Part shown: positions 9,859 through 48,148 of the stretch, in pieces
How positions within the stretch are numbered: the first letter of the stretch is position 1
Layout of the letters: each line of letters opens with the position of its first letter
NCBI GenBank assembly: GCA_964491475.1
Contig: CAZBFO010000004.1
Location: 67,290-131,289 of the forward strand
From: an uncultured Gammaproteobacteria bacterium
Lineage (GTDB): Bacteria > Patescibacteriota > Patescibacteriia > SG8-24
DNA: 64,000 bases
Reading direction: 5' to 3'
Translations under genes and position numbers: made by a program
The notes under the pieces: model-generated
Database searches by the model: none
What the model saw: only the letters and a program-made list of their open reading frames with translations
Told to the model about the DNA's origin: nothing

Positions 9859-10929
9859 TCAGCGGCCCAACTCCCAGGCGGGATCGACTTCCGCCTTCTT
9901 GCCATCGTCAAATTTGCGCCGCTGGGCGGCGAAATAGGCGGCCATGGCGATCATGGCGGCGTTGTCGGTGCAGTAGGAGAACGGCGGCTCGACGAAACGG
10001 ACCAAGGGCAGATGATGCTCCAGGCGAGAACGAAGCGTCGTGCGCAGCTTGGGGTTGGCCGCGACTCCGCCTGCCAAAATCACCGTTTTTACCTTGGATT
10101 CGTGCGCCGCGCGGACGGTCTTGGCCATCAGCACGTCGACGATGGCCTGCTCCACTGAAGCGGCCACGTCACGCACGAACTGCGGGTCCGACAACCGTTC
10201 CTTTTCTTTCTGCAGGAAGTAACGGACGGCGGTCTTGAAACCGGAGAACGAGAACTCGTGGTGCTTTTCGTTCATGAACGGCCGCGGAAAATCGAAGGCT
10301 TGCGGATTACCCTCCTTAGCCAGGCGTGAAATGGCCGGACCGCCCGGATAACCGAGGCCCATCAGCTTGGCAGCCTTGTCGAAAGCCTCGCCGGCGGCGT
10401 CGTCACGCGTGGCCCCGAGCAGCTTATAACGGCCGTAGTCTTTCATCAGCAGCAGCTCGGTATGGCCGCCGGAAACGACCAGCACCAGCGCCGGAAAGAC
10501 GCCGTCGGGGTCCTTGAGCGCCGGCTCCAGCGGAGCGCCGGGCAACCACGCCGAGGCCACGTGCCCGTCGATGTGATTCACGCCGATCAGCTTCTTGTTC
10601 CAGGCAGCTGCGAGTGCGCGAGCGGTGTCGAAACCCACTTTGAGCGACGTTACCAATCCCGGCCCGCGGGTAGCGGCAACGACGTCCACCATTTTGCCGA
10701 GCGCGCGGCCATCGGCATTGCCGACCAACTTCTGGGCGAGCGCGGCAAGCAGCACCGGCACAGTTGCCGAGTGCTCGCGCGCCGCGACTTCCGGCACCAC
10801 GCCGCCATACATGGCGTGGATGGCCTGGGTGGCCACCAGCGGCTCGAAACGCAAAATCTTGCCGTCTTTCACTTCGAGAAAGGCGGCTGCTGATTCGTCG
10901 CAGGAGGATTCGAGGGCTAGGATGCGCAT
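9859..10929 (-). CDS. tsaD: tRNA N6-adenosine threonylcarbamoyltransferase TsaD
   Basis: Kae1/TsaD/Gcp family: N-terminal MRILALESSCDESAAAF, HxxGH metal site, 356 aa. Confidence 0.9.
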   Translation of the reverse strand: MRILALESSCDESAAAFLEVKDGKILRFEPLVATQAIHAMYGGVVPEVAAREHSATVPVLLAALAQKLVGNADGRALGKMVDVVAATRGPGLVTSLKVGFDTARALAAAWNKKLIGVNHIDGHVASAWLPGAPLEPALKDPDGVFPALVLVVSGGHTELLLMKDYGRYKLLGATRDDAAGEAFDKAAKLMGLGYPGGPAISRLAKEGNPQAFDFPRPFMNEKHHEFSFSGFKTAVRYFLQKEKERLSDPQFVRDVAASVEQAIVDVLMAKTVRAAHESKVKTVILAGGVAANPKLRTTLRSRLEHHLPLVRFVEPPFSYCTDNAAMIAMAAYFAAQRRKFDDGKKAEVDPAWELGR

Positions 10930-11044: not shown

Positions 11045-12238
11045 TCATTTCTTCCCGGTAAGGCCCGGGAAGATTTTTTTGATTCTCTCGTACAGCAGGC
11101 CGATGTCGTGCAGGGCCGTGGCCGCCTGTTCGCGGCGCAAGTTCTGATGCAACAGGACATTGCCGCTCTTGGCCGCTGCGGCCGCCTTGGTCAGCGCCCG
11201 CGTCTTGCGCATGGCCGGCCACTGGATTTGCTCCATCTCCGCCTGCCTCTCGGCATCGATGCCGCGTTTGGCCATCAGCCAGGCGCGGTCGGGGCTGTCG
11301 ACCACGATGACGTTGTTGTTCGTCCATGAGCCCATCCGCATTTCGGCCGTCTGCGCCCATTCGACCACGACCAGTCCCTTTGCCGAGGCCAATGCCTCGC
11401 GGTACTTGCGGGCGACGTGCGGCATGGTGAGCTCGGTCACGAACTGACGATGATGATCGGCGCCGGGCAAGAACAGCGTTTCGGCCAGGCGTTTCCGGTT
11501 CACGATCAGGCGATCGTCCGAAAGGATGCCGACGCCGAATCTGCGTGCCAGCTCGTCACGAACGGCCTGCGCTCCCGGCGAATCCTCGTCGTAAACGTCG
11601 CGCAGCAGCTGGTCGACGTTGACGTGCTTGGCCTCCAGTTTTTCGAAGCGCGCCAGTCGCGCCAGCTCTGCCGCCACCCAGCTCTTGCCAACCGCGATGC
11701 AGCCGGTGACGCCGATGCGGTACTGGCCGAGCAGACGTTCTTCGAGCGACTGCTTCACGAACATCGGCACGAACTTGTCGACGTCCAGACGCTGCAAGAC
11801 AAACCCTTTGACCATCGACGAGGACACGATGTGCAGCTCGCGAGTGGCATCGAGATATTCGATCTGGACTTGCGGCAGGATGAGCCGGTTCAGCTCCGCC
11901 TGCTCGTCCTCGTACTCGAGATCCTTGGCGTTGCGCACGCCGCGGAACAGCCGGTCGCAGCCGTGATACAGGTAGACGTCGACCAGCAGACCGCCGGAGC
12001 CGACTACTGTGGCGTGGCGGATGCCCGCCTCGCGCACGGCGCGCTCGGTCATCTGCACGCGCTCGTCGAGCGTGTACAGGTAGGACCCGGCCTTGCGCTC
12101 GTTGTTGGCAACGAGCACCACCAGCTCTCGGCACAGCTCCTTGGCGCGGCCGATCAGGTCCAGGTGCCCGTTGGTGACGGGATCTGCAGACAGGGCGACG
12201 AGGCCCTTTTTGTACTTGGGCATCGTTGCTTGGCTCAT
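11045..12238 (-). CDS. bifunctional phosphopantetheine adenylyltransferase / dephospho-CoA kinase (CoaD-CoaE fusion)
   Basis: N-terminal PPAT signature (GLVALSADPVTNGHLDLI); C-terminal DPCK P-loop IGVTGCIAVGKSW and DPCK-like tail; ATG 12238 (MSQATMPKYKK) has SD AAAGGAAAAG. Confidence 0.75.
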   Translation of the reverse strand: MSQATMPKYKKGLVALSADPVTNGHLDLIGRAKELCRELVVLVANNERKAGSYLYTLDERVQMTERAVREAGIRHATVVGSGGLLVDVYLYHGCDRLFRGVRNAKDLEYEDEQAELNRLILPQVQIEYLDATRELHIVSSSMVKGFVLQRLDVDKFVPMFVKQSLEERLLGQYRIGVTGCIAVGKSWVAAELARLARFEKLEAKHVNVDQLLRDVYDEDSPGAQAVRDELARRFGVGILSDDRLIVNRKRLAETLFLPGADHHRQFVTELTMPHVARKYREALASAKGLVVVEWAQTAEMRMGSWTNNNVIVVDSPDRAWLMAKRGIDAERQAEMEQIQWPAMRKTRALTKAAAAAKSGNVLLHQNLRREQAATALHDIGLLYERIKKIFPGLTGKK

Positions 12239-12407
12239 GACGCTTTTCCTTTTGTGAAGGTTGCCGGCACTTGAGCCGACGGCCAACTGTAGCAGCGCCG
12301 ACGGTCGCTGTCAATCGTAAAAAGCCCGTCAGCATTGACGAAACGGAACCTCGATGACACATTGTGAACGCGTCCTTTAGAGACAGACCAACCCGCAGAG
12401 GCGTACG

Positions 12408-14794: not shown

Positions 14795-14869
14795 GGTCCC
14801 ATCGTCTAACGGCTAGGACGACTCCCTTTCACGGAGTAAATAGGGGTTCGATTCCCCTTGGGACTACCA
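14795..14869 (+). tRNA. tRNA-Glu (anticodon TTC)
   Basis: cloverleaf folded by hand: acceptor GGTCCCA/TGGGACT, D arm GTCT-AACGGCTA-GGAC, anticodon stem ACTCC/GGAGT with loop CTTTCAC, T arm AGGGG-TTCGATT-CCCCT, encoded CCA; close to E. coli tRNA-Glu. Confidence 0.85.
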
Positions 14870-14986: not shown

Positions 14987-15832
14987 TCAAAATCGCATTC
15001 CGCGCACGCGTTCCCAATGCCCGTCTTCCGGCAGTCGCAGCAACTCGGACACGCGCGGCGCATACCGCACCTCGATGTGATCGCCCTGCCGGACGTCGGC
15101 AACACGGATGCCGTCCAAGAATAGCGCTGGCGGATGACGATGCCTTTCCGGAATGCCGAGGTTCGGCTCGATGCCGAGCAGGGCGAAACGTAACGAACGA
15201 CCCTCGGCCGAGAGCAGCAAGCCTGCCTGCGGCGCGACGGTGTCATGAATGCCTTTCACGTAGAGCGCGCGCACCGACGGGTCCATGCGCGGCGCATGCA
15301 GATGCACCGCCATCGGCGAGGTGGAACCGATCGCCGAACAGAGGCAGGCACCGGATCCGCGAATGTCCTTTACGAAGGCCGTTTCCTTGCCGCTGACCGA
15401 TTCTACGCGCAATCGCAGCCAGGTCATCGTGCACTCGATGGTGATGTCGTTGACCGCGCGATACGCCTGCTCGCCCCCAGAGGAGCGATGGATGACTTGC
15501 ATTGCGGGAATCGGCATGGGCGACAACCTGCCTTCAATGGCCTTGTCGAGCGTCTCGATGAGACGTTGGCGGTCGCGAACCGTCGTCAGGAAGCCCTCGT
15601 GGCCGAGATTGAACGCGAGAAGGTGCTGTCGGCGCTGTCCGTGAGCTCTCACCGCTTCAAGCAGCGTGCCGTCGCCGCCGAGCACCAGCAGCAGGTCGGC
15701 ATTTTGCGGGTCGCAAACGCGCATATTCGGATGATTTCGGCGCAAATGAGCCGCCAATTTTGCCTGCTCCGCAAGCAGCGCGTCAGTAACGACGCGGGAA
15801 AAGAACGCGTAGGTTTCGTAGTGTTTTCGCAT
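14987..15832 (-). CDS. nadK: NAD kinase
   Basis: GGDGT(L) motif in LLLVLGGDGTLLEAV, NAD kinase length and downstream conserved blocks. Confidence 0.8.
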   Translation of the reverse strand: MRKHYETYAFFSRVVTDALLAEQAKLAAHLRRNHPNMRVCDPQNADLLLVLGGDGTLLEAVRAHGQRRQHLLAFNLGHEGFLTTVRDRQRLIETLDKAIEGRLSPMPIPAMQVIHRSSGGEQAYRAVNDITIECTMTWLRLRVESVSGKETAFVKDIRGSGACLCSAIGSTSPMAVHLHAPRMDPSVRALYVKGIHDTVAPQAGLLLSAEGRSLRFALLGIEPNLGIPERHRHPPALFLDGIRVADVRQGDHIEVRYAPRVSELLRLPEDGHWERVRGMRF

Positions 15833-15879
15833 GTCTCCATGCTACCTGCCTCCGCGAAAATCGCCGCGTGGAACGCTGT

Positions 15880-15902
15880 ATTTGTACTTTGAAAGTACAT
15901 TT
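15880..15902. promoter_or_regulatory. operator-like palindrome ATTTGTAC-N7-GTACATTT between nadK and the divergent 15998 gene
   Basis: palindromic core TGTACTTTgAAAGTACA; same half-sites and spacing as the site at 24846-24868. Confidence 0.45.
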
Positions 15903-15997
15903 GAATGTCGACGGCGACCACCGCGGAAAAAGACCTGCTAGCGTGAAGGCACGAGGTACTCACGCCTCGCGCTCGTTCACACTAACGGAGAAACGCC

Positions 15998-16936
15998 ATG
16001 CAACACGATTACAACGGGTTCCCCAACCAGCACATCGCGCGGGAAATCGCCACGCGGTTTCCCAACAACGCGCGAGTCATCGTACACAAGGACCGAGACC
16101 TGCTGGTACCGGTCTTCGACCAGAAGGACGCGGCCATCCTGACGCCCAATGCCGCAGATGCCGGGATTTCGGTGTCCAATGACGAGCCTGTCGTCCGCGA
16201 CATCAACTCCACTTGGGACATCGGCAAGCACGCCGAAGCGCGGCGACCGGTGTCGCTCGGCGCAGTCGGTGAGGACATTCGCGAGGCGTTCGTGCGGCCG
16301 CTCCCCGTCTGGACGCAGCACGTGCTCGACATGCCCATCAAGTTCCCAGGCACCGACGTGCGCGTGCCGGGCGTGCTGGCCAGCGTCGTGCCGGCCATCC
16401 AGCGCGTGCTCGACGTCGAGAAGGCCTTGAACCCGCGCTATGACGAATACTACGCCTACCTTTCGGTCCATCAGGCGACCTTGGTGCGCGGCGAACGCAT
16501 GCGTGAAAATCCGTATCACGTCGACGGATTCCAAGGTCCGCGATGGGAGACCAAGCATCCGGTCAACCACAGCTACCTGCTGTCCGACGCCCTGCCGACG
16601 GTGTTCTACCCCATCGGCTTCCCCCTCGACCACATCGATCCCTGTTTCGACGACGTCTACGCGGAGTTCGCGCAGCGCATCGAGCGCGGACCGGGCGCGC
16701 CGACCTGGCGCGCGGAGGACTTCGAGCTGGTACTCATGGACGCCTACTGCGTGCATCGCGGCGACCTGGCCGACCGGCCGATGACCCGCACCTGGCTCCG
16801 CATCTCCTGGGAGACGCGCGTCTTCGACCGGCTCGGAAACACCCACAATCCCCTGTTTGCCTACGACTGGGAGATGGTCGCGCGAGACACCGATCCGCGA
16901 GTCCGTCCCCGACTTGCTGCCGCCGTGGCCGCGTGA
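15998..16936 (+). CDS. hypothetical protein
   Basis: 312-aa ORF with protein-like composition; the overlapping 507-aa minus-strand ORF is R-rich antisense. Confidence 0.55.
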   Translation: MQHDYNGFPNQHIAREIATRFPNNARVIVHKDRDLLVPVFDQKDAAILTPNAADAGISVSNDEPVVRDINSTWDIGKHAEARRPVSLGAVGEDIREAFVRPLPVWTQHVLDMPIKFPGTDVRVPGVLASVVPAIQRVLDVEKALNPRYDEYYAYLSVHQATLVRGERMRENPYHVDGFQGPRWETKHPVNHSYLLSDALPTVFYPIGFPLDHIDPCFDDVYAEFAQRIERGPGAPTWRAEDFELVLMDAYCVHRGDLADRPMTRTWLRISWETRVFDRLGNTHNPLFAYDWEMVARDTDPRVRPRLAAAVAA

Positions 16937-17023
16937 ACTGCAGCCGCCCACGACTTGGGCGGCTTTTTCTGTGCCGCGCCTGTCCGGGAGCCGGAAAGTG
17001 TGGGATACTTGGAGTGATATCCT

Positions 17024-17731
17024 ATGTGTTTTTCCGCTACGGCCAGCTTCGTTGCCGGCGGCACGTTGAGCGCGGCCGGCATCGCGGTGTTGCGGCGCGC
17101 CCGCACTCGCGAACGCATTCCGATCGCCTCGATTCCCCTGCTCTTCGGCGTCCAACAGCTGGTGGAAGGTGTCGTTTGGCTGACATTCTCGAGCCATCCG
17201 ACGATTCATGCCGCAGCCACAGTGCTCTTTGCGCTGTTCTCGCACGTCCTGTGGCCGTTCTACATACCGCTCGCGGTCATGCTCAACGAGACGGGCCCGA
17301 GGAGGAGGAAGGCCCTCAAATGGATGCTCGTCTTCGGCGTGTCGGTCAGCATCTACATGCTGTATTACGTCCTCACGGGACCGGTCTACTCGGAGATCGT
17401 TCAGAACTGCATTTACTACTATCTTCCCTATTCGGAATCGTACCTGCTGCTTGCCGCTTACGTCGTCGCCACCTGCGTCTGCTGCTTCATTTCGAGCCAC
17501 AAGTTCATCCGCACCTTCGGCCTGGCGGTCTTCGGCGGCTTGATCATCTCGCTGTGGTACTACCTGTACGCCTTCTATTCAGTGTGGTGCTACTTCGCGG
17601 CCATCTTGAGCCTGATCATCTACGTGCACTTGGGCCCGCGAAAGAAGTTGCAGGAAGTGGTGCAGAGGGTGAGAACCGAACTGCCGAAGCATCTCCCCAA
17701 ACTCCCGCCGATTGACCGCAAGCCCCGATGA
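17024..17731 (+). CDS. integral membrane protein (about 6 TM helices)
   Basis: highly hydrophobic, W/Y/F-rich, 235 aa. Confidence 0.55.
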   Translation: MCFSATASFVAGGTLSAAGIAVLRRARTRERIPIASIPLLFGVQQLVEGVVWLTFSSHPTIHAAATVLFALFSHVLWPFYIPLAVMLNETGPRRRKALKWMLVFGVSVSIYMLYYVLTGPVYSEIVQNCIYYYLPYSESYLLLAAYVVATCVCCFISSHKFIRTFGLAVFGGLIISLWYYLYAFYSVWCYFAAILSLIIYVHLGPRKKLQEVVQRVRTELPKHLPKLPPIDRKPR

Positions 17732-17749
17732 ACGTAGGGTGGAGCCACT

Positions 17750-18742
17750 ATGGACTCCCTCTCGGTCACGGCAGCCAAGAACGTCGGCGACATCATCCGC
17801 ATGGCGCTCAAACATGAGGATTCGCGCAAGGCGCTGGTGGTCTACGACCTCCGCACGCCGCTTTCGCGTCTCATCACCGAAGCGTACGCGTCGGCGCTGC
17901 CGAACGCCGTCCGCATGGACTTTGACGCGACCGCGCAAGCCGACGTCCTCGCCGCGATTCAGACGCTTTCGCCCAAGGACCTAGTGGTGCTGGTGCAATC
18001 ATCCAACTTCAGGTTGGCCGAGTACCGCATCCGCATCGAGCTGTTCCAGCGCGGATTGGCGGTCATCGAGCACGTGCACCTCGAACGCGCCGTCGACGAA
18101 CGGCAGCTGGGAACTTATGTCGACGCGCTCGCCTATGACACGGAGTACTATCGCGGCGAGGCGCGCAGGCTTAAGGAGAAAATCGACGCCGCCAAGACGA
18201 TTACGGTGCGCTGCATCGGCGGCACCGTCCTCACCTACGAGGGCGGAATGGAGGACACCAAATGGAATGTCGGCGACTACGCGGGGATGAAGAACGTCGG
18301 CGGCACCTTTCCCATCGGCGAAGTGTTCAGCGAGCCGCGGGACTTCTCCGGAGTCAACGGCGAAGCGATGGTCTTCTCGTTCGCGGGCACAGACCACGTG
18401 GTGCAGATGCACGAGCCGTTCAAGATCGTCATCGAGCAGGGCATCCTCACGCGGCACGAAGGTCCGCCGGGCTTCCAAGAAGTGCTCGACCAGATCAGCT
18501 CGGAAGAAAAAATCCTGGTGCGCGAGTTCGGCATTGGCCTGAATCGCGCCATGGACAAGACGCGCGTTCTCGACGACATCACCGCCTTTGAACGGCAGCG
18601 CGGCCTCCACTTTTCGCTGGGAGAAAAGCACGGCGTCTACAAAAAGCCCGGCATGGCCCCGAAAAAGACCCATTTTCACATCGACATTTTCGTCGACGTA
18701 GACGTAATCGAGGCCGACGGGGAGGAAATCTTCAGAGTCTAG
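17750..18742 (+). CDS. hypothetical protein, possibly M29 (aminopeptidase T)-like fold
   Basis: 330 aa; segment FPIGEVFSEP recalls the GEVF(T)AP block of M29 peptidases; assignment is weak. Confidence 0.45.
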   Translation: MDSLSVTAAKNVGDIIRMALKHEDSRKALVVYDLRTPLSRLITEAYASALPNAVRMDFDATAQADVLAAIQTLSPKDLVVLVQSSNFRLAEYRIRIELFQRGLAVIEHVHLERAVDERQLGTYVDALAYDTEYYRGEARRLKEKIDAAKTITVRCIGGTVLTYEGGMEDTKWNVGDYAGMKNVGGTFPIGEVFSEPRDFSGVNGEAMVFSFAGTDHVVQMHEPFKIVIEQGILTRHEGPPGFQEVLDQISSEEKILVREFGIGLNRAMDKTRVLDDITAFERQRGLHFSLGEKHGVYKKPGMAPKKTHFHIDIFVDVDVIEADGEEIFRV

Positions 18743-18801
18743 AGGAAATGACGCGACGCAAAAACGGGAGCCGGATGGGGCGCCCGTTTTTTCTGTCTTT
18801 A

Positions 18802-19677
18802 TCAGGAAAACAGTTCCGCATTGAATCCCTGCGAGAACCTGGCGCTCATGTCGGCGCCCACGGTCAGGAATGCAAAGTCAAAGTGCGGGGCGAGCGTTTC
18901 GGGACTTACCAGAAAAAGCGCGGTGGCGATGGCGTCTGCGACCATGGCGGTGTCGGCCACGACCCAAGCCGCCAGCAGGTGTCGCGGTGACAGCAGCGTA
19001 CGCGGGTCGATGATGTGATGATAATCCGCCCAGTTGCGACGATTGCCGGCAGAGCCGCAGATGCTCTCGTTGCCGAGCTCGACCACGCCGATCACTTGGC
19101 TGAAATTGCCGGGATGCTCCAAGCCGACGCGGCGCCGGCTGCCGTCGGTGCTGCAATGCAGGATGTCCTGCCCCGCATCGATGCAGAACGCCCGTACGCC
19201 GTTATCGAGCAGCACTTGGCCGACGATGTCTATCAGGTATCCTTTTCCGGCCGAGCCGAAGTCCAACCAGGCCGGCTGCTTCACTTCGAGCACCGGATGA
19301 TGATACGAGAGGGCGTCCTCCCAGCGCGGCGGCCGCGTGAGCGGCTGCGGCCTGAAGGAATACTTGGCGTCATAGCCCGCATCTACCATGACGTTGCCGA
19401 TCAGCGGCGTGAACCGTCCGTCGGTGAGATCATACAGCCGGCGGTAGATGGCCATCATCGGCGCAGCGTCGTCCGGGAGCGTATAGGTGCCGGCCTTGCG
19501 GGCCATCTCGGCAATCAGCGAATCCTCTCGAAAACGCGAGTAGTCACGGTCAAAAACGTCAATGCGCGCGAGAATCGCGCGCATCAACTGGTCCCGTTTT
19601 TCGGAAGAGACGTCCTGCAGCAGGTCGATCTTCCAGGTGGTGCCGATGGCGTCGAAGGCCAGCGGTTGGACCGGCAT
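18802..19677 (-). CDS. FAD:protein FMN transferase (ApbE family)
   Basis: ApbE-like length and blocks (GKGYLID, IDAGQDI); starts 4 nt after the upstream FMN-binding protein gene. Confidence 0.8.
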   Translation of the reverse strand: MPVQPLAFDAIGTTWKIDLLQDVSSEKRDQLMRAILARIDVFDRDYSRFREDSLIAEMARKAGTYTLPDDAAPMMAIYRRLYDLTDGRFTPLIGNVMVDAGYDAKYSFRPQPLTRPPRWEDALSYHHPVLEVKQPAWLDFGSAGKGYLIDIVGQVLLDNGVRAFCIDAGQDILHCSTDGSRRRVGLEHPGNFSQVIGVVELGNESICGSAGNRRNWADYHHIIDPRTLLSPRHLLAAWVVADTAMVADAIATALFLVSPETLAPHFDFAFLTVGADMSARFSQGFNAELFS

Positions 19678-19681
19678 AGCG

Positions 19682-20179
19682 TTACTTGGAAGCCTGGGTC
19701 TTCACCTGGGCCACGGCATCGTTGAAACCCATCAGGGTGAGCGAGGAGCCGGAGATATTGCCGGAAAGCTTCACGTCATTGATGTTCTTGCCGACGACCT
19801 GGGCCTTGTAGCCGCTGATGAAGGAGTTCTGCATGAACACCGACTTCTTGTTGGTGGCCTGCGCCTTGACGTCAGCATCGGTGATGACGTTGCCCTTGAG
19901 CGTCAGCGTGACGTTGATCGTCTCCGGGCCGGCGGGAGAGGTATAGTGACCGACGGCACTGTAGGTGCCGTCCTTGTAAGTGCCCTTCGCCTGCATCGCG
20001 GCGCCACTGGCTCCCGTGTCCGTGGCCGCAGGGGCCGGAGCACCGTCCTTGGCACCGTCCTTGTCGGCCGCGGGTGCGGCGCAACCTGCGCCGACCATGA
20101 GAAGGGCGGAGCCGGCCAGCGCGGTGAGCGCGACGGCCTTCGACTTGAGCTTCTTTTCGTTCTTCACGATTGCTTCCAT
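19682..20179 (-). CDS. FMN-binding domain lipoprotein (candidate ApbE flavinylation substrate)
   Basis: signal peptide with lipobox VGAGC, low-complexity linker, FMN_bind-like C-terminal domain with an SGSS motif at the expected flavinylation site. Confidence 0.7.
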   Translation of the reverse strand: MEAIVKNEKKLKSKAVALTALAGSALLMVGAGCAAPAADKDGAKDGAPAPAATDTGASGAAMQAKGTYKDGTYSAVGHYTSPAGPETINVTLTLKGNVITDADVKAQATNKKSVFMQNSFISGYKAQVVGKNINDVKLSGNISGSSLTLMGFNDAVAQVKTQASK

Positions 20180-20228
20180 AGTGCGTGGTTAAGTGCGTGA
20201 ATTGCTGGCAAAATGCATGACAGTCCTG

Positions 20229-20256
20229 ACTATACTACAGCCTGTCGTTTTGGCAA
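20229..20256 (-). promoter_or_regulatory. sigma70-like promoter (TTGCCA-N16-TATAGT) for the FMN-binding/ApbE operon
   Basis: minus strand reads TTGCCAAAACGACAGGCTGTAGTATAGT about 45 nt upstream of ATG 20179. Confidence 0.45.
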
Positions 20257-20348
20257 AGAACGGCGGTGCATAAGGCATTCCAAAACCGTGACGATGTGCT
20301 AGCGTTGTTTCGTATCGCATTTACCCTTCTCCTCTTCCGAAAACTCTT

Positions 20349-20885
20349 ATGCGCATTTCGTACGGCACCAGGCTCCTCGCCGCCACGGCCCTGCTCGCAT
20401 CGCTTGTTCTCGTTGGCGCGGGCTGCAAGGCCCCTAAATCCGGAGAAACGTCCGCGGGACCGTCTGCCGGCGTGACTGCGCCGCCGAGCGGCCCAGGCGC
20501 AGGGATGCCCTACCCGACGACGACTCCTACTCCCGCCGCCCCTCCGCGCAGGGTCACCATCCCGCTTCGTGACGTGAAAGGCGGAACGTCTCAATACGGA
20601 TCGGTGACGCTCACCGACTTGCCGGGCAACTCCACGCGCGTCGACATCGCCCTTGCTGGCGCCAAGTCGAAATCGGTACAGCCGGCCGCCATCTACGCCG
20701 GCACCTGCGCGACGCAGCAGGCCGAAGTGCAGTATCCGCTGAACCCGGTGGTGAACGGCAAATCGAGCACCGCGCTTGCGGTGAACATCGGCGCAATTCT
20801 CGACAAGGCTCCGCAGGCGCTCAAGGTCCGCGAAGACGGCGCGACGCCCAACTTGCCCTTCGCAGCCTGCGCGGAACTCAAGTGA
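20349..20885 (+). CDS. hypothetical lipoprotein
   Basis: signal peptide plus lipobox LVGAGC, Pro-rich linker, single globular domain. Confidence 0.5.
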   Translation: MRISYGTRLLAATALLASLVLVGAGCKAPKSGETSAGPSAGVTAPPSGPGAGMPYPTTTPTPAAPPRRVTIPLRDVKGGTSQYGSVTLTDLPGNSTRVDIALAGAKSKSVQPAAIYAGTCATQQAEVQYPLNPVVNGKSSTALAVNIGAILDKAPQALKVREDGATPNLPFAACAELK

Positions 20886-20975
20886 AGAAAAGCAAAAGCC
20901 GGCAGAGAGCCGGCTTTTTGGCACAAATAAAGACGTCCCCCGGCAAAAGATTGCCGGGGGACGTGCGCTGACGGG

Positions 20976-21635
20976 TTACTGCTCCCAGAGCTTGGCGAAA
21001 CCTCTCACCGTCGCCGGGGCGGTCGGAGTCGTGAACAGCTCACGACGGAGATCGGACGGATCGAGATCGTCAGTCAGCGTCTCGATGAGGCTGTTGACGC
21101 TGACATCGTCCGCGAGCACCGAAGTGCGGATGCGGAAGCCCTGGCACTCCTTGAGTCCGGCCAACCTCACGCGGGTGAGGCCGTAGACCAGGAGCTCGAG
21201 GTGCGGGCTGTGACCCACGACGAGCACGCGCGCGTCGCGGGGCAGGCTCAACACCCACTCCTTGAAGAGCTGCACGACCGTCGCGCTGGTCTCCTCTGCC
21301 AAGTCGGCATCGAAGGCGAACGCCGCAGCGACCATGTCGTCGCCTGCCTTCTCGGCCTTGTGGCAGATGTTCCACATCTGCTGCAGGCCGGGAGACAGGA
21401 CGTAGAGAGGAGCCACGGAGGCCTTCCTCTCGACATCGGTCCATCGGGCGCCTTCGGCGAACGCCTCGAGCGTCTGCATGGTGCGCGGGACGGCGCTGAC
21501 GAAGAAGTTATCGAACTGCTTGCCGATCAGGAACTCCTGACCGACGGCGCGGGCGAACAGCTTTCCGAGCGATCCGACCGTGCCCATCTTGTCGCCGTCC
21601 TTGATCGAATGCCTGCGGAACTCGAATGTGGTCAT
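20976..21635 (-). CDS. histidine phosphatase superfamily (PGAM/SixA-like) protein
   Basis: N-terminal RHS(IKDGD) catalytic-type motif and a C-terminal H in VLVVGHSPHLEL; 219 aa. Confidence 0.55.
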   Translation of the reverse strand: MTTFEFRRHSIKDGDKMGTVGSLGKLFARAVGQEFLIGKQFDNFFVSAVPRTMQTLEAFAEGARWTDVERKASVAPLYVLSPGLQQMWNICHKAEKAGDDMVAAAFAFDADLAEETSATVVQLFKEWVLSLPRDARVLVVGHSPHLELLVYGLTRVRLAGLKECQGFRIRTSVLADDVSVNSLIETLTDDLDPSDLRRELFTTPTAPATVRGFAKLWEQ

Positions 21636-21699
21636 TATGCTTCTCCAGGGTTGGAATGTGTGGTCATCGCTGCTGAAAATGGTGTTTCAGCAACCGTGC

Positions 21700-21728
21700 A
21701 AGATAGCACAAAAGCGGCATTTTGTCAA
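21700..21728 (-). promoter_or_regulatory. sigma70-like promoter (TTGACA-N17-TATCTT)
   Basis: minus strand TTGACAAAATGCCGCTTTTGTGCTATCTT upstream of the 21635 start. Confidence 0.4.
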
Positions 21729-21817
21729 CGGTATCAGGGAGTATTTTTTCCTAAATTAAGCCATATAATTTGCATGAGAAAAGAAAAAACCCCGCAACAA
21801 GCGGGGCGTGGCGACCT

Positions 21818-22831
21818 TTACGGCCGCCGTTTGGCTTCATCTTCGGCCAGACAGAGGAGCCCGACGTTGCGCATCCCTTCGATGCCGCCGACTTCGGGCT
21901 CACGATCTTCACGGATCGCCGTGATGAAGTCCTGCAGCTCCCCCACGTACGGATCGACCGGCGTGAAGTCGAAGGGCTCTCCGTCCACGGTGATCGAACC
22001 GGTGCCGCGGGCGCCGAGCGTGTCGACGCATTCGATGACGGACCTGGAGCCGTGGATCTCCATTCGCTTGTAGCGAGGCAGCACCACCGACACGGAGATC
22101 GAAGCCGTGGCGCCGTTTTTGAAACGCAACGCAATCGTCGCAGACTCGTCGCGTCCGCTCCTGAAACAGGAATCGGAAGTCACGGCACGAACCGAGGTCA
22201 CTTCGCCGCAGGTCGGCATCATGAACCAACGAACGAGATCAAGGCAGTGCGAACCGAGCGCGGCCATGGACCACCAGCGTCCGACTTTGCCTTTCGCCCG
22301 CCAGTTGTCGGCGCCTTTGGCCGGACTGGCCCAGTGCACGTTCATATGGCGCAAATCGCCGACGAAGGGTCCGGCGCGAAGCGCGTTTGCCAGCTTTCGA
22401 TGGCCCGCGTGCCAGCGGTTGTGGTAGGCGATGCCCAGCTTCACTCCCGCGTTCCAGCACTCTTCCGTCATGGCCAGCGTCGCATTGACGTTGGTGGCCA
22501 TCGGCTTTTCGCAGAAGACGTGCTTGCCTGCCTTCGCGGCGGCGATAGCTTGCTCGGCGTGCAGCCCGTCGGGCGTGGCGATGATGACGGCGTCGACGGT
22601 GGGGTCGGCCAGCATCAGGCTGTAGCTGCTATAGGCAGGTTGCTTTGAAAGCGGACGATGCTTCTCGACGAAGCGGCGAGCCTTCCCGGAGTCAGGATGC
22701 ATCACCGTCCAGAGAACGCCGTCGCTGACGTTGCGAAGTGCCGGAGCCAAATGCGTGTCTGCGGCCTCGCCACAGCCGACCATCGCGAACCTGATTGGTC
22801 TCGGAATCGTCATTTCTCTTTCCTTTTCCAA
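21818..22831 (-). CDS. Gfo/Idh/MocA family oxidoreductase
   Basis: N-terminal Rossmann motif IRFAMVGCGEAADTH, EKP motif, family-typical length. Confidence 0.8.
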   Translation of the reverse strand: MEKEREMTIPRPIRFAMVGCGEAADTHLAPALRNVSDGVLWTVMHPDSGKARRFVEKHRPLSKQPAYSSYSLMLADPTVDAVIIATPDGLHAEQAIAAAKAGKHVFCEKPMATNVNATLAMTEECWNAGVKLGIAYHNRWHAGHRKLANALRAGPFVGDLRHMNVHWASPAKGADNWRAKGKVGRWWSMAALGSHCLDLVRWFMMPTCGEVTSVRAVTSDSCFRSGRDESATIALRFKNGATASISVSVVLPRYKRMEIHGSRSVIECVDTLGARGTGSITVDGEPFDFTPVDPYVGELQDFITAIREDREPEVGGIEGMRNVGLLCLAEDEAKRRP

Positions 22832-22940
22832 AGGGCAATGCGCAAAACACCGTGCTTGCGACCGCTGAACTTAGCCAAAGAAACGCGGGGTTGTCAATCG
22901 TCAGCCAAAAGAAAAAGTCCGGGAACACCCGGACTTGCCG

Positions 22941-23507
22941 TTACATTGCCGGACCCATCGGAGGATGACGGGTGCCGAACAGGCGAATCAACTCCGCGAA
23001 CTTGTGCAATGCCGCAGTATGCAGCGGGAACGCGAGAGTCTCGTCGCCCTTGAGGATGACCAGCTCCTGGGTCTCGTTCTCCCCCGTTTCGGGGTTGGGC
23101 ACCTGCACCAGTTCCGGCAGCTCCGGCAAGTGCAGGTCGACGATGCCGAAGGTGAGGTGGTGCCGACCGTCGTTGCCGGTCATGGTATCGAACAGGGTGA
23201 CCTGCTCGACGGCGGCGACGATGCCGGTTTCCTCGTGCAGCTCGCGCACCAGCGCCTTCTGCCAGGTTTCGCCGTAGGTGTGGAAGCCGCCTGGCAGTGC
23301 CAGTTCACCTCTCTTCTCCTCCAGGCCCCGGCGCACGCCCAGAATGCCGTCGGCGACGCGCACCAGCGCCACGCTGACCGTGGGCGGGTTGCGGTACGTG
23401 ATGTAGCCGCATGCACCGCACTTGCGCGGCCAGTCGAATTCGCCGTGATCGGTCGCGTAACCGGTACCGCAGCACGAACAGTGCGAGAACGGCTTCGGAT
23501 CCTTCAT
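22941..23507 (-). CDS. NUDIX hydrolase with N-terminal zinc ribbon (NudC-like NADH pyrophosphatase candidate)
   Basis: CxxC...CxxC ribbon (CSCCG...CGACG) followed by Nudix box GGFHTYGETWQKALVRELHEETGI; 10 nt downstream of nadA. Confidence 0.75.
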   Translation of the reverse strand: MKDPKPFSHCSCCGTGYATDHGEFDWPRKCGACGYITYRNPPTVSVALVRVADGILGVRRGLEEKRGELALPGGFHTYGETWQKALVRELHEETGIVAAVEQVTLFDTMTGNDGRHHLTFGIVDLHLPELPELVQVPNPETGENETQELVILKGDETLAFPLHTAALHKFAELIRLFGTRHPPMGPAM

Positions 23508-23517
23508 GATGACCTCC

Positions 23518-24789
23518 TCATTTGACCGTCAGCATGCGATCGATGGCCACTTTGGCCCGCGTCGCGGCTGTACGGTTGAGACGAATGACGTTCCCGTCGA
23601 TGACTTCGCTGGCCGCAGGCACGGCATCGTCGAAGACGATCTCGTACTTGTCTTCGCGGAGCGAAGCCGCCAGCTTCTCCAGGGTGTTCTGCTTCATGAA
23701 GTCGCAGACGGCGTCATCGGAGATGGGATGGAAGGTGCGGTCCGGGCACAGCTTGCGAAGGCGATAGATCATCCCCTTCTCCGTGCCGACCACGAAGGTC
23801 TTGGCGCTGCTCTCGCGCACGCGTTCCAGCATGCCTTCGGTCGAGCGGTAGTACACCCGGTTCTTGGGCAGCAGGCCGGCGTTGAGCTTGAACAGGCAGG
23901 CCGAGGCGCAGCCGCACTCCGGGTGGAGCAGCAGCTCGGAGTCCTCGTACTTGTCGAGGGCTTCCTCGGGCGCGTCGGCGCCGATGCGCTCGTGCACGTA
24001 GCAGCAGGCGTTGTAGCCGGCGAAGGGGTTGGCGTAGACCTCGATGTTGTCGGGATCGACTGCCACGCCTTGCGCGGAAGCTAGCTCCAACGCGCGTGCC
24101 TTCATGACCAGGCCGAGGAACTTGTCGGGCATCACCAGGATTTTCTTTCCCGGATTCAGCCTGGCCGCCTCGACGATGATTTTGTCGGTGTTGGCGCTGG
24201 TGCTGATGTAGTCGCTCATGGTCTTGGCCAGCACGTCGCTGTTGACGTAGGTGACCACGATGCCGCCGGGGTTGCGCTGCTTCCAGCGCTCCACCCAGGC
24301 GTGATCGGTGCCGCGCACCAACGAGCAGCTGTGCACGGCCGGGTCGCCCTGCACGAACACGCGCGTGCCCTCGCCCGCGATGATCTTCGCCGTCGCGCCC
24401 ATGAAGTGCACGCTCGAGAAGTCCACGCGGGGCGCCTTGAGGTCGCGGACCTTGAACGACAGCCCCAGCGAATCGCCGACGAAGTGCGCGACTTCGTGCA
24501 GCTCGGGGAACTGGTAGTTGTGCGCCACGATGGTCGACTTCTTCTGCTCGGCCAAGATGCGTGCCTCGACGGCCATGTCGGCCAGGTCGGTGCAGATATC
24601 CTTGGTGTAGCGCCCCGGGTAGAGGTCGCCGGCAAGCCGGTTGAAGTCCTCATGCCATTGGGCCGCGATGGCCTTCACGCAGGATCGCCAGATGATTGCG
24701 CGTCCTCGCATCGTCTCTATCCTTTCTTTGATTGGGTTGCATGACAAGGAACGACGTACAAACCTAGCATCGACAGGGGTCACCGTCAA
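23518..24789 (-). CDS. nadA: quinolinate synthase NadA
   Basis: NadA blocks (VAHNYQ, HFMGATAK, three conserved Cys including CDFMKQNT), 423 aa. Confidence 0.8.
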   Translation of the reverse strand: MTVTPVDARFVRRSLSCNPIKERIETMRGRAIIWRSCVKAIAAQWHEDFNRLAGDLYPGRYTKDICTDLADMAVEARILAEQKKSTIVAHNYQFPELHEVAHFVGDSLGLSFKVRDLKAPRVDFSSVHFMGATAKIIAGEGTRVFVQGDPAVHSCSLVRGTDHAWVERWKQRNPGGIVVTYVNSDVLAKTMSDYISTSANTDKIIVEAARLNPGKKILVMPDKFLGLVMKARALELASAQGVAVDPDNIEVYANPFAGYNACCYVHERIGADAPEEALDKYEDSELLLHPECGCASACLFKLNAGLLPKNRVYYRSTEGMLERVRESSAKTFVVGTEKGMIYRLRKLCPDRTFHPISDDAVCDFMKQNTLEKLAASLREDKYEIVFDDAVPAASEVIDGNVIRLNRTAATRAKVAIDRMLTVK

Positions 24790-24845
24790 CGCCAGGCGTC
24801 AGAGACCGTACCACGCTGCAGCCGTCCTTTGCGGAAAGCCGAATC

Positions 24846-24868
24846 AAATGTACCTTTACAGTACATTT
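24846..24868. promoter_or_regulatory. operator-like palindrome AAATGTAC-N7-GTACATTT in the nadA / regulator divergent region
   Basis: perfect inverted repeat AAATGTAC...GTACATTT ending 14 nt before the regulator ATG. Confidence 0.45.
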
Positions 24869-24881
24869 AACGTTTACCATC

Positions 24882-25607
24882 ATGCCCCTCTCCCCCGCAG
24901 CGCTTTTCGTTCGTGCCGGCCTCACCCGAGACGACGGCCTTGCGTATGCCGTCCTGGCCAAGCATGACGGCATCTCCATCGCCGACATCTGCCGCAAGAT
25001 CGGCCTGCACCGACCGGCCGCGTATCGCGCCTTGGCCCGCCTGGAAAAAGCCGGGCTCCTGCGCAAAACGAAACGCGGAAAACGGTTCATCTACTCCGCC
25101 GCCGATCCGGACAGGCTGGAACGCCTGCTTGCCCGCGCGGACGCGGAAAACGCACGTTCCGCCGAGATGTTCAACACCGTGCCGTCCGGCAACGGCGTCG
25201 TGACCGTGCTGCGCGGCAGCAAAGGGCTCGCGACGGTGCTCGACGACTTGGCACGCACGCTCGGCAAAGACGAAATCTTTTACCGCATCTCGTCGCGCAA
25301 GCCGAGCACCAGCGTCGAGGGCTTCGTGCCGAAGGACTTCCTGCGCACGCGCGACGGCAAAAAATTGCAGCAGTTCGTGCTATGCAACGCCGCGCTCCGC
25401 GCCGCACCGCACAAGAAACGCATCGACGGCCTCTCGAAGGTGGTGCCGGAAGGCGGAGCGCCTTTCGAGTACGACATCGCGCTGGTCATCTACGGCGACA
25501 AAGTCGCCACGGTCGACTACGCCGCAAAACAGGCGGTGGTCGTAAAAAATGCGCGACTGGCCAAGTTCCATATTCGTCTCTTCAAGATGCTTTTTGATCG
25601 GATATAA
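24882..25607 (+). CDS. TrmB-like winged-helix transcriptional regulator (paralog 1)
   Basis: N-terminal wHTH (ISIADICRKIGLHRPAAYRALARLEKAGLL) plus a C-terminal effector-type domain; paralogous in layout to 33041-33823. Confidence 0.6.
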   Translation: MPLSPAALFVRAGLTRDDGLAYAVLAKHDGISIADICRKIGLHRPAAYRALARLEKAGLLRKTKRGKRFIYSAADPDRLERLLARADAENARSAEMFNTVPSGNGVVTVLRGSKGLATVLDDLARTLGKDEIFYRISSRKPSTSVEGFVPKDFLRTRDGKKLQQFVLCNAALRAAPHKKRIDGLSKVVPEGGAPFEYDIALVIYGDKVATVDYAAKQAVVVKNARLAKFHIRLFKMLFDRI

Positions 25608-25648
25608 AAGACCCCCATCATTGATGGAGGCCTGATGAGATGCGCGAC

Positions 25649-25984
25649 CTAACGACGCATGCCCTGCCGGGGCCGCAGCTTTGGCGCGTTCTCGCGAAGC
25701 GTCTTCGCGGCTGCGGCGCGTTCCGGATTCGCCTCGGCCCATTCTTTGTCCGTCGGCAGCGAAACGAAAGGTTCCGGAAGGACGGTCTGGGCGCCGCAAC
25801 AAGGGCACATCATGACCGTCTCGTCGCGGGCCCCGCCGATGTCGTGCGTGTGCTTCTGAAAAAGATCCGCTTTGGTGACGCGGAGCAAGGCTCCGCAGCC
25901 TGTGGGACCGTTGTATTCGGTGCCCGTGCACTCGAACTCTTTGCTCCAGCCATCCTGCTCCCGTCCAGGTCGAACGATTTCCAT
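25649..25984 (-). CDS. small zinc-ribbon protein (WSKE...C...C...CPxCG family, paralog 1)
   Basis: WSKEFEC...GCG...CPCCG motifs shared with 32341-32580 and 32597-32866; SD GGAGGA. Confidence 0.55.
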   Translation of the reverse strand: MEIVRPGREQDGWSKEFECTGTEYNGPTGCGALLRVTKADLFQKHTHDIGGARDETVMMCPCCGAQTVLPEPFVSLPTDKEWAEANPERAAAAKTLRENAPKLRPRQGMRR

Positions 25985-26100
25985 GTTTCCTCCGTGGTCG
26001 GCGTACCGACCCGAGGATGCTGCCAGAAAAAGCCGTTTTTGTCAACGGTGCCTCGTCCGTCGCGGTATAAAAAACCCCCGACGAGCGTCGGAGATTTCGT

Positions 26101-26877
26101 TCAAGCGGTTCGCGGATACAGTTCCTTGAACGCATCGATGATTTCGACTTTGCGGTAGAGCGGCAGCGGCGCCAAGCTGCGCCCCTTGCGGTTGCCGGGC
26201 GCGTTCCACGGGCGGCCCGTGACCATCACGCTCAACACCTTTTCGCCCAGCGGCCGGACGTAGTGCCAAGCGGTCGGATCGACCATCTCGTACTTTTCGC
26301 CGTTGCCGATGACTTTGGCGTTGCCCTTCGGCGGCGCAGGTCCGTCCGATGGCCCGTGTCCGTACGCCGTTTCGTACCAACCGCGGCAGATGCGCATGGC
26401 CGAGGGCCACGGGTGCGGGTGATACAACGGCTCGCTGGCGTAGCAGGGATGAATGACGTGCAGGCACAGCCGACCGTCGCCGTACGGCATCCAGACGCGT
26501 TCCACGTTGGGCTTTTCGTCTGCGATGAGCAGGCTCTCCCACTCGGGAACGTGCAACAGCAACGCCGGCAGCTCGCGTTCGGCCTGTTCGAGCGTCGGCA
26601 GCATGCTGCCGCCGGGCGTGCTTCCCCAAGCGAAGCGGTCGCAGGGATGCTGGCGCGTCTCGACGAAGCGCTTGCAGTTGCGAAGCATCAGCTCCGGGTC
26701 CAGCAAGGTCTCGGCATGGACACCGTCCGGCAACAGGCCGTACAGCTTTTCGTCGTCGATCCAACAGCGGTCGTCGCCGCGCTGGTCGCGGTGGGCGCGG
26801 ATGCCGTGGCGAAGACGCCGCACTTCCTGCCGCAACTTTTCCTTGTTGAGGACCAAAAGGTCGTCGTCTTTGGACAT
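26101..26877 (-). CDS. hypothetical protein, possibly cupin-like
   Basis: 258 aa, W/Y/H/P-rich, HVIHP...E metal-type motif; SD AGGAGG; hairpin terminator CCGACGagCGTCGG downstream. Confidence 0.5.
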   Translation of the reverse strand: MSKDDDLLVLNKEKLRQEVRRLRHGIRAHRDQRGDDRCWIDDEKLYGLLPDGVHAETLLDPELMLRNCKRFVETRQHPCDRFAWGSTPGGSMLPTLEQAERELPALLLHVPEWESLLIADEKPNVERVWMPYGDGRLCLHVIHPCYASEPLYHPHPWPSAMRICRGWYETAYGHGPSDGPAPPKGNAKVIGNGEKYEMVDPTAWHYVRPLGEKVLSVMVTGRPWNAPGNRKGRSLAPLPLYRKVEIIDAFKELYPRTA

Positions 26878-26930
26878 CGTTCCTCCTAGCGCCTTTCGGC
26901 AAGCGCATTGAAGCAGCAGCGCGGGCGACG

Positions 26931-32996: not shown

Positions 32997-33040
32997 AAGC
33001 CAAGTAAAGGATTTCCATTACTACGTCATATATCGTAATT

Positions 33041-47145: not shown

Positions 47146-47283
47146 AGGAAAAGGTATGAGCAATGCCTGCAGTATAACTTGCCTGCGAGGTCTTGGCCAT
47201 TCAACGCAAAAGCATTGACGTTTCGGCGTTTTTTTGCCAAGGTCGCAACGTTGATCTTTCTCGTCAACGGAAGGAGAAAAAGG

Positions 47284-48012: not shown

Positions 48013-48148
48013 GCCGAAGCGCATCACGCCTCCCGACGTCCGTCGGGAGGCTTTTTCTTTATGCCCTTGACCGTTCAGGTTGTGTCGGTAGGTGAGCGCT
48101 GCTATCCTCAAAATAGGGTTCCTTTCACGCCTACAGGGAGTACATCCC

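Follow-up and report, generated by a model that had tools for sequence, protein, structure and literature searches.

Introduction

The known control systems for the synthesis of nicotinamide adenine dinucleotide (NAD) in bacteria are NadR, NiaR, NrtR, NadQ and riboswitches. The TrmB family of regulators is known from other pathways: its targets are sugar transport, glycolysis and gluconeogenesis, and the characterised members in a 2014 review are all archaeal (PMC4158304). Archaeal TrmB, TrmBL1 and VNG1451C activate or repress according to the position of the site relative to the promoter, and Halobacterium VNG1451C has been seen bound at its own promoter (PMC4158304). Sites described for the family are TACT-N3-AGTA, TATCAC-N5-GTGATA and TACT-N7-8-GAGTA. 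Here we describe a palindromic element occurring twice in a 64-kb stretch of DNA from an uncultured bacterium (positions 67,290 to 131,289 of contig CAZBFO010000004.1; the whole stretch is called the window), and the gene of a bacterial TrmB-family regulator adjacent to one of the copies. This copy lies between the regulator gene and nadA, the other between a NAD-kinase-like gene and a gene for an Fe(II)/2-oxoglutarate-dioxygenase-like (below, oxygenase-like) protein. Taken together, the evidence makes it reasonably likely that the palindrome is the operator of this regulator and defines a small, lineage-conserved regulon whose targets would be activated and in which the regulator's own gene would be repressed.

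The system was compared with Pyrococcus TrmB and TrmBL1, Thermococcus Tgr, Halobacterium VNG1451C and TrmBL2. It shares with the TrmB family the PF01978 winged helix, the DNA-contacting tyrosine and a long helix with a C-terminal alpha/beta domain, and the published TACT/AGTA-like palindromic halves resemble the TACT-N5-AGTA of the operator described here. It differs in its bacterial host, in the linked genes (nadA, Nudix, kinase-family and oxygenase-like genes instead of sugar genes), in the lack of a PF11495 match in the regulator and in the GTAC-N7-GTAC half-site spacing, which is new. TrmBL2 is a chromatin protein with little sequence specificity, unlike the two specific sites found here.

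NrtR has a palindrome of about 21 bp at NAD-synthesis genes, is often autoregulated and has a genomic tie to the Nudix fold and nadA (PMC2330246, PMC6800001). However, NrtR is a single protein in which a Nudix-like domain is joined to a C-terminal winged helix, whereas the present regulator has no Nudix match, and the NrtR core GT-N7-AC is out of register with GTAC-N7-GTAC, in which GT and AC are 11 nucleotides (nt) apart. Enterobacterial NadR joins a helix-turn-helix (HTH) domain to nicotinamide mononucleotide adenylyltransferase and ribosylnicotinamide kinase domains and has the operator TGTTTA-N6-TAAACA; these domains were not found in the regulator and the operator differs. NiaR (YrxA) consists of HTH_11 and a 3H niacin-binding domain. 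In the regulator HTH_11 scored weakly, below the cut-off, and 3H was absent. Since the domain comparisons fail in all three cases, the original prediction, which had been made from the sequence of the window, was right in stating that the regulator is not NadR, NiaR or NrtR.

LysR-type regulators are encoded divergently from their target, with a site near position -65 of the target and over the regulator's own promoter. The present locus is similar: the genes are divergent, a single site about 60 bp ahead of the target start also covers the regulator's own promoter, and autorepression combined with activation is predicted. No LysR HTH or substrate-binding domain was found in the regulator, and the likeness is one of regulatory logic only. 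What is known in this system is the TrmB family and the ordinary palindromic operator; the target set, the bacterial context and the fixed geometry are new. A full-text literature search brought up no mention of NAD genes being regulated by a TrmB-type protein.

Results

Two copies of the palindrome in the window

The two near-identical palindromes that had been predicted are present as described, and they are the sole matches in the 64 kb. Site 1 (ATTTGTACtttgaaaGTACATTT, 15880-15902) is located between the NAD-kinase-like gene and the gene of the oxygenase-like protein of 312 amino acids (aa), and site 2 (AAATGTACctttacaGTACATTT, 24846-24868), a GTAC-N7-GTAC palindrome, between nadA and the regulator gene; each is within a divergent intergenic region. 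Site 1 ends 47 nt from the ATG (15832, minus strand) of the NAD-kinase-like gene and 95 nt from the ATG (15998) of the divergent 312-aa gene. Between site 2 and the regulator ATG (24882) there are 13 nt. On its other side, site 2 lies about 135 nt upstream of the likeliest nadA start, the ATG at 24711; the program listing open reading frames (ORFs) runs the nadA frame out to a TTG at 24789.

When TGTAC-N7-GTACA was searched with at most one mismatch, the only two matches in the window were sites 1 and 2; shuffled sequences gave 0.34, and 7 of 100 shuffles reached two matches. The complete 23-mer, with at most three mismatches allowed, also matched twice (shuffles gave 0.02, and none of 100 reached two). 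GTAC is common in the window (148 copies), and 0.34 GTAC-N7-GTAC pairs are expected at such density. The operator consensus is AAAyGTAC-N7-GTACATTT, and the majority of the copies read G-TACT-N5-AGTA-C.

A weight matrix built from nine sites was used, with a threshold of 14 bits, to scan the window and nine related loci (about 160 kb of non-redundant sequence). No match beyond sites 1 and 2 was detected in the window, and the matches in the related loci were at the expected intergenic positions only. The original prediction had named occurrence at many unrelated promoters as evidence against a specific operator, and none was found at unrelated positions in the 160 kb. The single extra match (AAACGTACtatcattGTTCATTT, 2361-2383 of the locus L001) lies just past the terminator of the nadA-Nudix genes, upstream of a GFO/IDH/MocA oxidoreductase gene and a gene encoding a 316-aa protein. 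Only at this L001 site is the right half degenerate (GTTCATTT), and there is no rightward gene there. From its specificity, position and conservation (see below) the palindrome is very probably the operator of the adjacent TrmB-family regulator.

Conservation of the site and of the gene linkage

Close relatives of the regulator are few: ten are 60-69% identical to it and one is 35% identical. DNA of six further distinct orthologous loci, from related uncultured soil bacteria, was available (L001, L005, L008, L011, L012 and L013); the search yielded one locus from GTDB species genomes and three from JGI metagenomes. In all seven orthologous loci, the window included, GTAC-N7-GTACATTT is found 13-17 nt from the regulator start codon, which marks the palindrome as a specific conserved cis-element tied to the TrmB-like gene and nadA-Nudix. 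The copies in the six other loci are ATACGTACcatcggaGTACATTT, AAACGTACtatcaaaGTACATTT, AAACGTACcatctgaGTACATTT, AATTGTACtatcataGTACATTT, AAATGTACtattagaGTACATTT and AAATGTACtatcgaaGTACATTT. The right half GTACATTT is invariant among these regulator-adjacent operators, whereas the remaining intergenic DNA has diverged, save for promoter-like blocks.

The nadA-Nudix pair is kept, divergent from the regulator gene, in the window and in five of the six other loci (L001, L005, L011, L012 and L013). In L011 two small genes are located between the regulator and nadA-Nudix, and in L008 the operator, the regulator and a downstream flavoenzyme gene are what was confirmed. A Nudix gene adjoins the gene of the closest regulator homologue (P0002). 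The flavoenzyme gene, which is Mqo/LhgO-like, follows the regulator in L001, L005 and L008; the window has no such gene downstream of the regulator. The window does have, at 26101-26925 (26110-26925 in a second delimitation), a homologue of the 281-aa protein encoded beside the regulator in L001 and L005, 61% identical to that of L001. The idea that this 281-aa gene was a NAD-kinase orthologue was rejected because BLASTP found no similarity. The gap in front of it is filled by a 172-aa ORF (25640-26158) of doubtful coding quality; a 172-aa gene is called there in the contig of the closest relative, too.

At the other site, the NAD-kinase-like gene is divergent from a gene of about 310 aa in all four contexts visible; the proteins of about 310 aa are 61-79% identical to the 312-aa protein of the window. 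Both other genomes with DNA (L016 and L017) have a counterpart of the operator in this intergenic region, TGTACcattttcaGTACA with N8 spacing in L016 and AAATGTAAaaaatcaGTACATTC in L017. The recurrence of the site at kinase-like genes supports the prediction that the operator is shared by this promoter. In the L016 and P0166 contigs a TrmB-like gene of 245-247 aa directly follows the gene of about 310 aa. The L016 regulator is 36% identical to that of the window, and beyond its gene lies a divergent Mqo/LhgO-like flavoenzyme gene. The linkage is therefore two-way: the regulator is at nadA-Nudix in the orthologous loci, and a regulator homologue is at the kinase/310-aa pair in L016 and P0166. 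Besides nadA, the oxygenase-like gene is the one most consistently linked to the operator, and its family appears to enter the regulon by two routes, site 1 in the window and the second operator-bearing unit in L001. Several independent arrangements thus tie together the regulator family, the palindrome, nadA-Nudix, the kinase, the 312-aa family and the flavoenzyme.

The locus of the 35% identical homologue (P0011) has a different palindrome, and NAD genes are absent from it. Together with the diverged L016 regulator and its N8 spacing, this suggests that operator and regulator change together. The P0011 gene is beside recQ and a UPRTase gene, with an inverted repeat upstream (ATTACACAAATATGTAAT; second copy ACATATTTGTGTGA; L003, 9880-9960). 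The related metagenome-assembled genomes carry the submitters' labels Candidatus Eisenbacteria and Candidatus Binatia. The proteins that they have in common are 75-79% identical, seemingly too close for two phyla, so at least one of the labels looks unreliable.

The TrmB-family regulator

The regulator gene (24882-25607, plus strand) encodes 241 aa, which begin with a winged helix, continue in a long helix and end in an alpha/beta domain. Residues 13-76 match the TrmB winged helix PF01978 (E 4.1e-10, 39.8 bits, cut-off 25.6), and the family profile matches TrmB 3qph (E 7.8e-10). The best full-length structural matches of the AlphaFold model (pLDDT 93.9) in a Foldseek search were TrmBL2 5bpd (E 7e-11) and TrmB 3qph; 252-268 columns were aligned to TrmBL2 chains (E about 1e-10) and 255 to TrmB 3qph (E 2e-7). 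The TM-scores to TrmBL2 and TrmB were 0.38-0.49; the domains are probably oriented differently.

In TrmB and TrmBL2 the recognition-helix tyrosine Y50 contacts DNA (PMC4158304). Y48 of the regulator aligns with the Y of NRVYD (TrmB) and PRTYD (TrmBL2), i.e. with TrmB Y50. It shows no variation within the close clade, and among 91 members of the family its conservation is at least 90%; the residue following it is R or K, versus D in TrmB and TrmBL2. The C-terminal sugar-binding effector domain PF11495, characterised by residues of the G320/E326 type, was not matched in the regulator at E <=0.01, and with 241 aa the protein fits the short TrmBL2 type, which is devoid of this domain. A deep profile search found at least 178 cluster representatives at E <=1e-30; among the matches listed most were about 240 aa long. 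Many arginines and lysines are conserved in the C-terminal domain and might suit a phosphorylated ligand. They are kept family-wide, also in members not linked to NAD genes.

A second TrmB-like paralogue of 260 aa is encoded at 33041-33823 of the window and at 13316-14104 of L001 (74% identity between the two). Right before its start codon there are a canonical promoter, TTGCTA-17-TATACT, and a palindrome, TACG-N8-CGTA, distinct from the GTAC operator (upstream regions 33010-33040 in the window and 13285-13315 in L001).

Predicted promoters around the operator

At 10 of 11 target sides, the element TGnTAnnnT, aimed at the target, was found 36-37 nt from the operator core. The target sides were those of nadA in seven loci, of the oxygenase-like gene in the window, L016 and L017, and of the GFO unit in L001; the exception was in L017, with GGnTAnnnT at the matching position. 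The background frequency of TGnTAnnnT is 2.1e-4 per position. In the window the element forms the extended -10 of a distal nadA promoter, P2 (TGGTACGGT, 24805-24813, minus strand), 36 nt from the operator core, and that of the 312-aa gene (TGCTAGCGT, 15936-15944, plus strand), 37 nt from the core; TGCTAGGCT in the L001 GFO unit is also 37 nt from the operator-like site. No -35 sequence was recognisable ahead of P2 or of the other operator-linked elements. Among the copies TG, TA and the final T are constant and the other positions vary, which points to a promoter-type pattern rather than an RNA helix. The distance of 36-37 nt would place the operator centre near -60 of the transcription starts deduced from these elements.

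A proximal nadA promoter, P1 (24761-24789, minus strand), consists of the -35 TTGACG (24784-24789), a 17-nt spacer and TGCTAGGTT (24761-24769), that is, TTGACG-17-TAGGTT with a preceding TG. A TGACA box and TGCTAnnGT are conserved across the six-locus alignment.

On the kinase side, the distance between the operator core and the start codon is exactly 51 nt in the window, L016 and L017. In L017 the annotated kinase-like start seems to be mis-called (9908-10000): a GTG 42 nt upstream of it gives back the conserved N-terminus Y-K/E-T-Y and also restores the 51-nt spacing. A -10-like hexamer (TAGCAT, TATGAC or TAAAAA) is found 6 nt before the kinase-like start codon (in the window TAGCAT, 15839-15844). 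The kinase-like mRNA is thus probably leaderless, with the operator centre predicted near -59. The L016 operator with N8 retains both target-side distances, so each promoter appears to be spaced from the nearest half-site. On the regulator side the start codon follows 13-17 nt past the core, a Shine-Dalgarno sequence is absent, and -10-like hexamers (TACTAT or TACATT) lie inside the operator. This position of the site over the regulator's own promoter fits the autoregulation that had been proposed. The possibility that the tandem elements were plus-strand promoters for the regulator (TTGTGA-N17-TAnCAC) was rejected, because most copies have C or G as the final -10 base and the box spacing at the 312-aa gene is about 38 nt.

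After each TGnTAnnnT, just 5' of the Shine-Dalgarno sequence of nadA or of the 312-aa gene, there is a conserved leader block, CGTCCTTTCACAA (variants CGCTCCTTACA and CGCTCGTTCACAC), within 24712-24845 and 15945-15997 of the window, 4108-4270 of L001 and 9838-9900 of L016. It is present twice in tandem before nadA and matches no Rfam family. The block resembles an anti-Shine-Dalgarno sequence and could pair with GGAGGA. The NAD+-I riboswitch (nadA motif) is likewise tandem and upstream of nadA, where two conserved copies of about 30 nt are found here, but the tandem elements of the present locus are read as TGnTAnnnT promoters followed by a short conserved leader. A NAD+ riboswitch, considered because of the tandem conserved elements, was rejected: the Rfam models, NAD+-I included, gave no credible match in the nadA intergenic region of the window at the gathering threshold or at E <=10, and none in six related loci at E <=1. 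An upstream ORF in the nadA leader was dropped because its ATG is not conserved in the window.

Products of the linked genes

The nadA gene (23518-24711, minus strand; 397 aa from the ATG at 24711) encodes a quinolinate synthase family protein (PF02445, E 4e-65), which can be aligned to most of the length of solved quinolinate synthases (E 6e-35) and scores under the NCBIfam equivalog cut-offs (219.8 versus 294). Co-transcribed with it is the gene of a Nudix hydrolase of 188 aa (22941-23507, minus strand; PF00293) with an N-terminal Cys4 zinc ribbon. The earlier description of this protein as NudC-like stood in part. The Nudix box GX5EX7REUXEEXGU is intact and the zinc ribbon aligns with that of NudC, but the NudC motif SQPWPFP was not seen in the translation, and the protein is matched best by the ADP-ribose pyrophosphatase domain of NadM-Nudix proteins and by NudC. 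No DNA-binding domain was matched in the 188 aa. After the Nudix gene the sequence can be read as a terminator-like hairpin, GTCCGGG-tgtt-CCCGGAC with a T run (22910-22934, minus strand), which separates nadA-Nudix from the GFO/IDH/MocA gene; its L001 equivalent is at about 2395-2425. Neither nadB, nadC, nadD nor nadE was among the window ORFs scanned, which were most of the larger ones.

The NAD-kinase-like gene (14987-15832, minus strand; 281 aa) had been predicted to encode NAD kinase. Membership of the NAD-kinase family was supported by a match to its N-terminal domain (PF01513, E 4.8e-12), and the sequences GGDG, FNLGHEGFLT (NxGxxGFLT) and IGSTSP (GST) align with solved NAD kinases. It stands apart from ordinary NAD kinases: its NCBIfam NAD-kinase scores are at most 50 bits, with cut-offs of at least 211, the Pfam C-terminal NAD-kinase domain PF20143 was not detected, and it belongs to a divergent subfamily with seven relatives at 45-56% identity, whereas ordinary NAD kinases are at most 32% identical. 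By these comparisons it is a divergent member of the NAD-kinase family, with NAD as its presumed substrate. A tRNA gene (14795-14866), the sole Rfam match in the window at the gathering threshold, is located just downstream.

The 312-aa protein (15998-16936, plus strand) had no Pfam or NCBIfam match; its family, which has no Pfam model, comprises 553 homologues, e.g. from Myxococcota and candidate phyla. In its predicted fold (model pLDDT 90.5) it resembles the Fe(II)/2-oxoglutarate dioxygenases, whose marks are a double-stranded beta-helix, an HxD/E...H iron triad and a basic 2-oxoglutarate-binding residue. Foldseek matched the model to KanJ, ColD, GriE and FtmOx1 with a probability of about 1.0 and TM-scores of only 0.3-0.4. 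H174-x-D176 and H253 are invariant in the family and R264 nearly so. The 316-aa protein of L001 is a 40% identical paralogue, and its unit carries its own operator-like site. Downstream of the 312-aa gene lie a DUF6629 gene (17024-17731, plus strand) and a gene of a 330-aa protein of unknown function (17750-18742, plus strand), 69% identical to a 353-aa protein near the equivalent module of L016. From their arrangement, the genes at 17024-18742 may belong to the transcription unit of the 312-aa gene and to the regulon.

The GFO/IDH/MocA oxidoreductase gene (21818-22831, minus strand), downstream of nadA-Nudix, has no operator of its own in the window; the gene at the additional L001 site is its orthologue. 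GFO/IDH/MocA and oxygenase-like genes are adjacent in L001 (331-2275) and translationally coupled in Nannocystis pusilla (L019, 7048-8951), where the oxygenase-like gene overlaps the GFO/IDH/MocA stop codon. From these arrangements the pair looks like an uncharacterised two-enzyme module found across phyla.

Elsewhere in the window, the longest ORF at 46543-48162 (minus strand) has 539 aa with a ClpP domain only at 362-539, and either its start is over-extended or it has an unusual N-terminal extension of about 360 aa. At 11045-12286 (minus strand) a 413-aa ORF encodes an apparent CoaD-CoaE fusion (pantetheine-phosphate adenylyltransferase and dephospho-CoA kinase).

Discussion

The proposed regulon would comprise nadA-Nudix, the regulator gene, the divergent NAD-kinase-family gene and the oxygenase-like gene. 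In relatives it would be extended by the flavoenzyme gene after the regulator and by the GFO/IDH/MocA gene paired with the oxygenase-like gene. At each site a single operator would serve two divergent promoters. Because the operator overlaps the -10 and start region of the regulator gene, binding should repress the regulator's own transcription. For nadA P2, the oxygenase-like gene, the L001 GFO unit and the leaderless kinase gene, the predicted operator centre is about 60 bp upstream of the start. Since these promoters have a -10 or an extended -10 but no -35 sequence, the regulator most likely acts on them as an activator. P1, which is canonical and located downstream of P2, fits a role in basal expression of nadA, to which P2 would add an activator-dependent boost. 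Activation is probably triggered by a small-molecule effector that binds to the C-terminal domain; that this might be a pyridine nucleotide or a precursor is a guess. The original prediction had assumed a repressor, whereas the fixed spacing to the target promoters, with the centre near -60, fits activation of the targets combined with repression of the regulator gene. Given this spacing, we lean slightly towards activation of the targets over their repression. Such control would mirror the position-dependent dual behaviour of archaeal TrmB, TrmBL1 and VNG1451C as well as the LysR-type logic.

Several points weigh against this proposal. The operator was searched for in 64 kb of the genome. The lineage is narrow and uncultured, and while conservation, linkage, fold and spacing are observations, binding, the transcription starts, the direction of regulation and the effector are inferred throughout. 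The -10 assignments are pattern matches, absent from the output of a generic scanner that requires a -35. An extended -10 promoter may also function unaided, and a site at -60 is no proof of activation. An effector is not assured, since the C-terminal domain is TrmBL2-like by comparison and TrmBL2 has no effector-binding domain according to the review (PMC4158304). Finally, nadA is the sole clear NAD-pathway enzyme of the regulon, and the oxygenase-like and GFO pair of Nannocystis has no NAD genes nearby.

The main alternative, possible though on the whole improbable, is that the same operator and regulator act purely in repression. The half-sites TACATT/TACGTT, which look like TAnnnT on both strands, would then be the back-to-back -10 sequences of both transcripts, NAD or a precursor would perhaps be the co-repressor, and the TGnTAnnnT elements would be secondary promoters or parts of the leader. 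Such a mechanism would agree with the clear overlap of the operator with the regulator's own start region, with the independent canonical promoter P1 of nadA and with NadR, NiaR and NrtR, which the respective reports describe as repressors (PMC2330246, PMC2330245, PMC6800001). However, P1 is downstream of the operator and would escape repression, and in L001 the half facing nadA, GTACGTAT, makes a poor -10. In the downstream element the positions that do not vary are precisely TG, TA and T, those that define an extended -10, which is the signature of a promoter and not of a leader. Moreover, simple occlusion gives no obvious reason for fixed distances of 36-37 and 51 nt across three non-homologous promoter classes.

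In the original prediction the regulator controlled de novo NAD synthesis, NAD(H) turnover and NADP formation. This scope was too narrow, as the proposed regulon also includes the oxygenase-like gene. That the regulon is nevertheless centred on NAD is somewhat favoured: nadA is the most constant neighbour of the regulator among the loci with DNA, the similarity of NadA to solved quinolinate synthases covers most of their length, the kinase-like protein keeps the NAD-kinase signature motifs, and the best matches of the Nudix protein, the ADP-ribose pyrophosphatase domain of NadM-Nudix and NudC, are NAD-related. These same observations make it rather unlikely that the regulon belongs to another pathway, formed by the oxygenase-like, GFO, kinase-fold and flavoenzyme proteins, for which nadA and the Nudix gene were recruited or which they serve. 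Such a pathway would suit the translational coupling of GFO and oxygenase-like genes in Nannocystis away from NAD genes, the wide occurrence of the uncharacterised oxygenase-like family, the kinase-like protein with its scores far below the NAD-kinase cut-offs and its unmatched C-terminal domain model, and the absence of nadB, nadC, nadD and nadE from the larger window ORFs scanned. More speculatively, and with little confidence, the operator could mark an unrecognised pyridine-nucleotide pathway in which NadA acts together with the oxygenase-like, GFO, flavoenzyme and kinase-fold proteins under a bacterial TrmBL2-type sensor of a pyridine nucleotide working as activator and autorepressor. Possible roles of such a pathway are to provide iminoaspartate or oxaloacetate by a route other than NadB, or the synthesis or repair of modified NAD(P).

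It is highly improbable that the palindrome is bound by some other factor, e.g. the second TrmB-like paralogue of the window (33041-33823), or that it is a promoter or structural motif general to the lineage, beside which the TrmB-like gene lies by coincidence of synteny, given that the 64 kb contain just two sites and that no copy was found at an unrelated position within about 160 kb, that the site accompanies the regulator family into the different gene neighbourhood of L016, that its half-sites are similar to known TrmB-family sites and that the paralogue has its own palindrome, conserved in L001.

With a TrmB-family regulator, the known control systems of bacterial NAD synthesis would gain an unrelated family. 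It would also provide an operator-defined regulon for the bacterial TrmBL2-type group of at least 178 sequence clusters, for whose function no description was found in the literature searched. The shared operator is a functional lead for three uncharacterised enzyme families, the oxygenase-like family with its more than 550 homologues, the divergent NAD-kinase-fold family and the Mqo/LhgO-like family, all of which it links to quinolinate synthase. With its rigid spacing near -60, the system would be an instance in which LysR-like logic has evolved on another protein scaffold.

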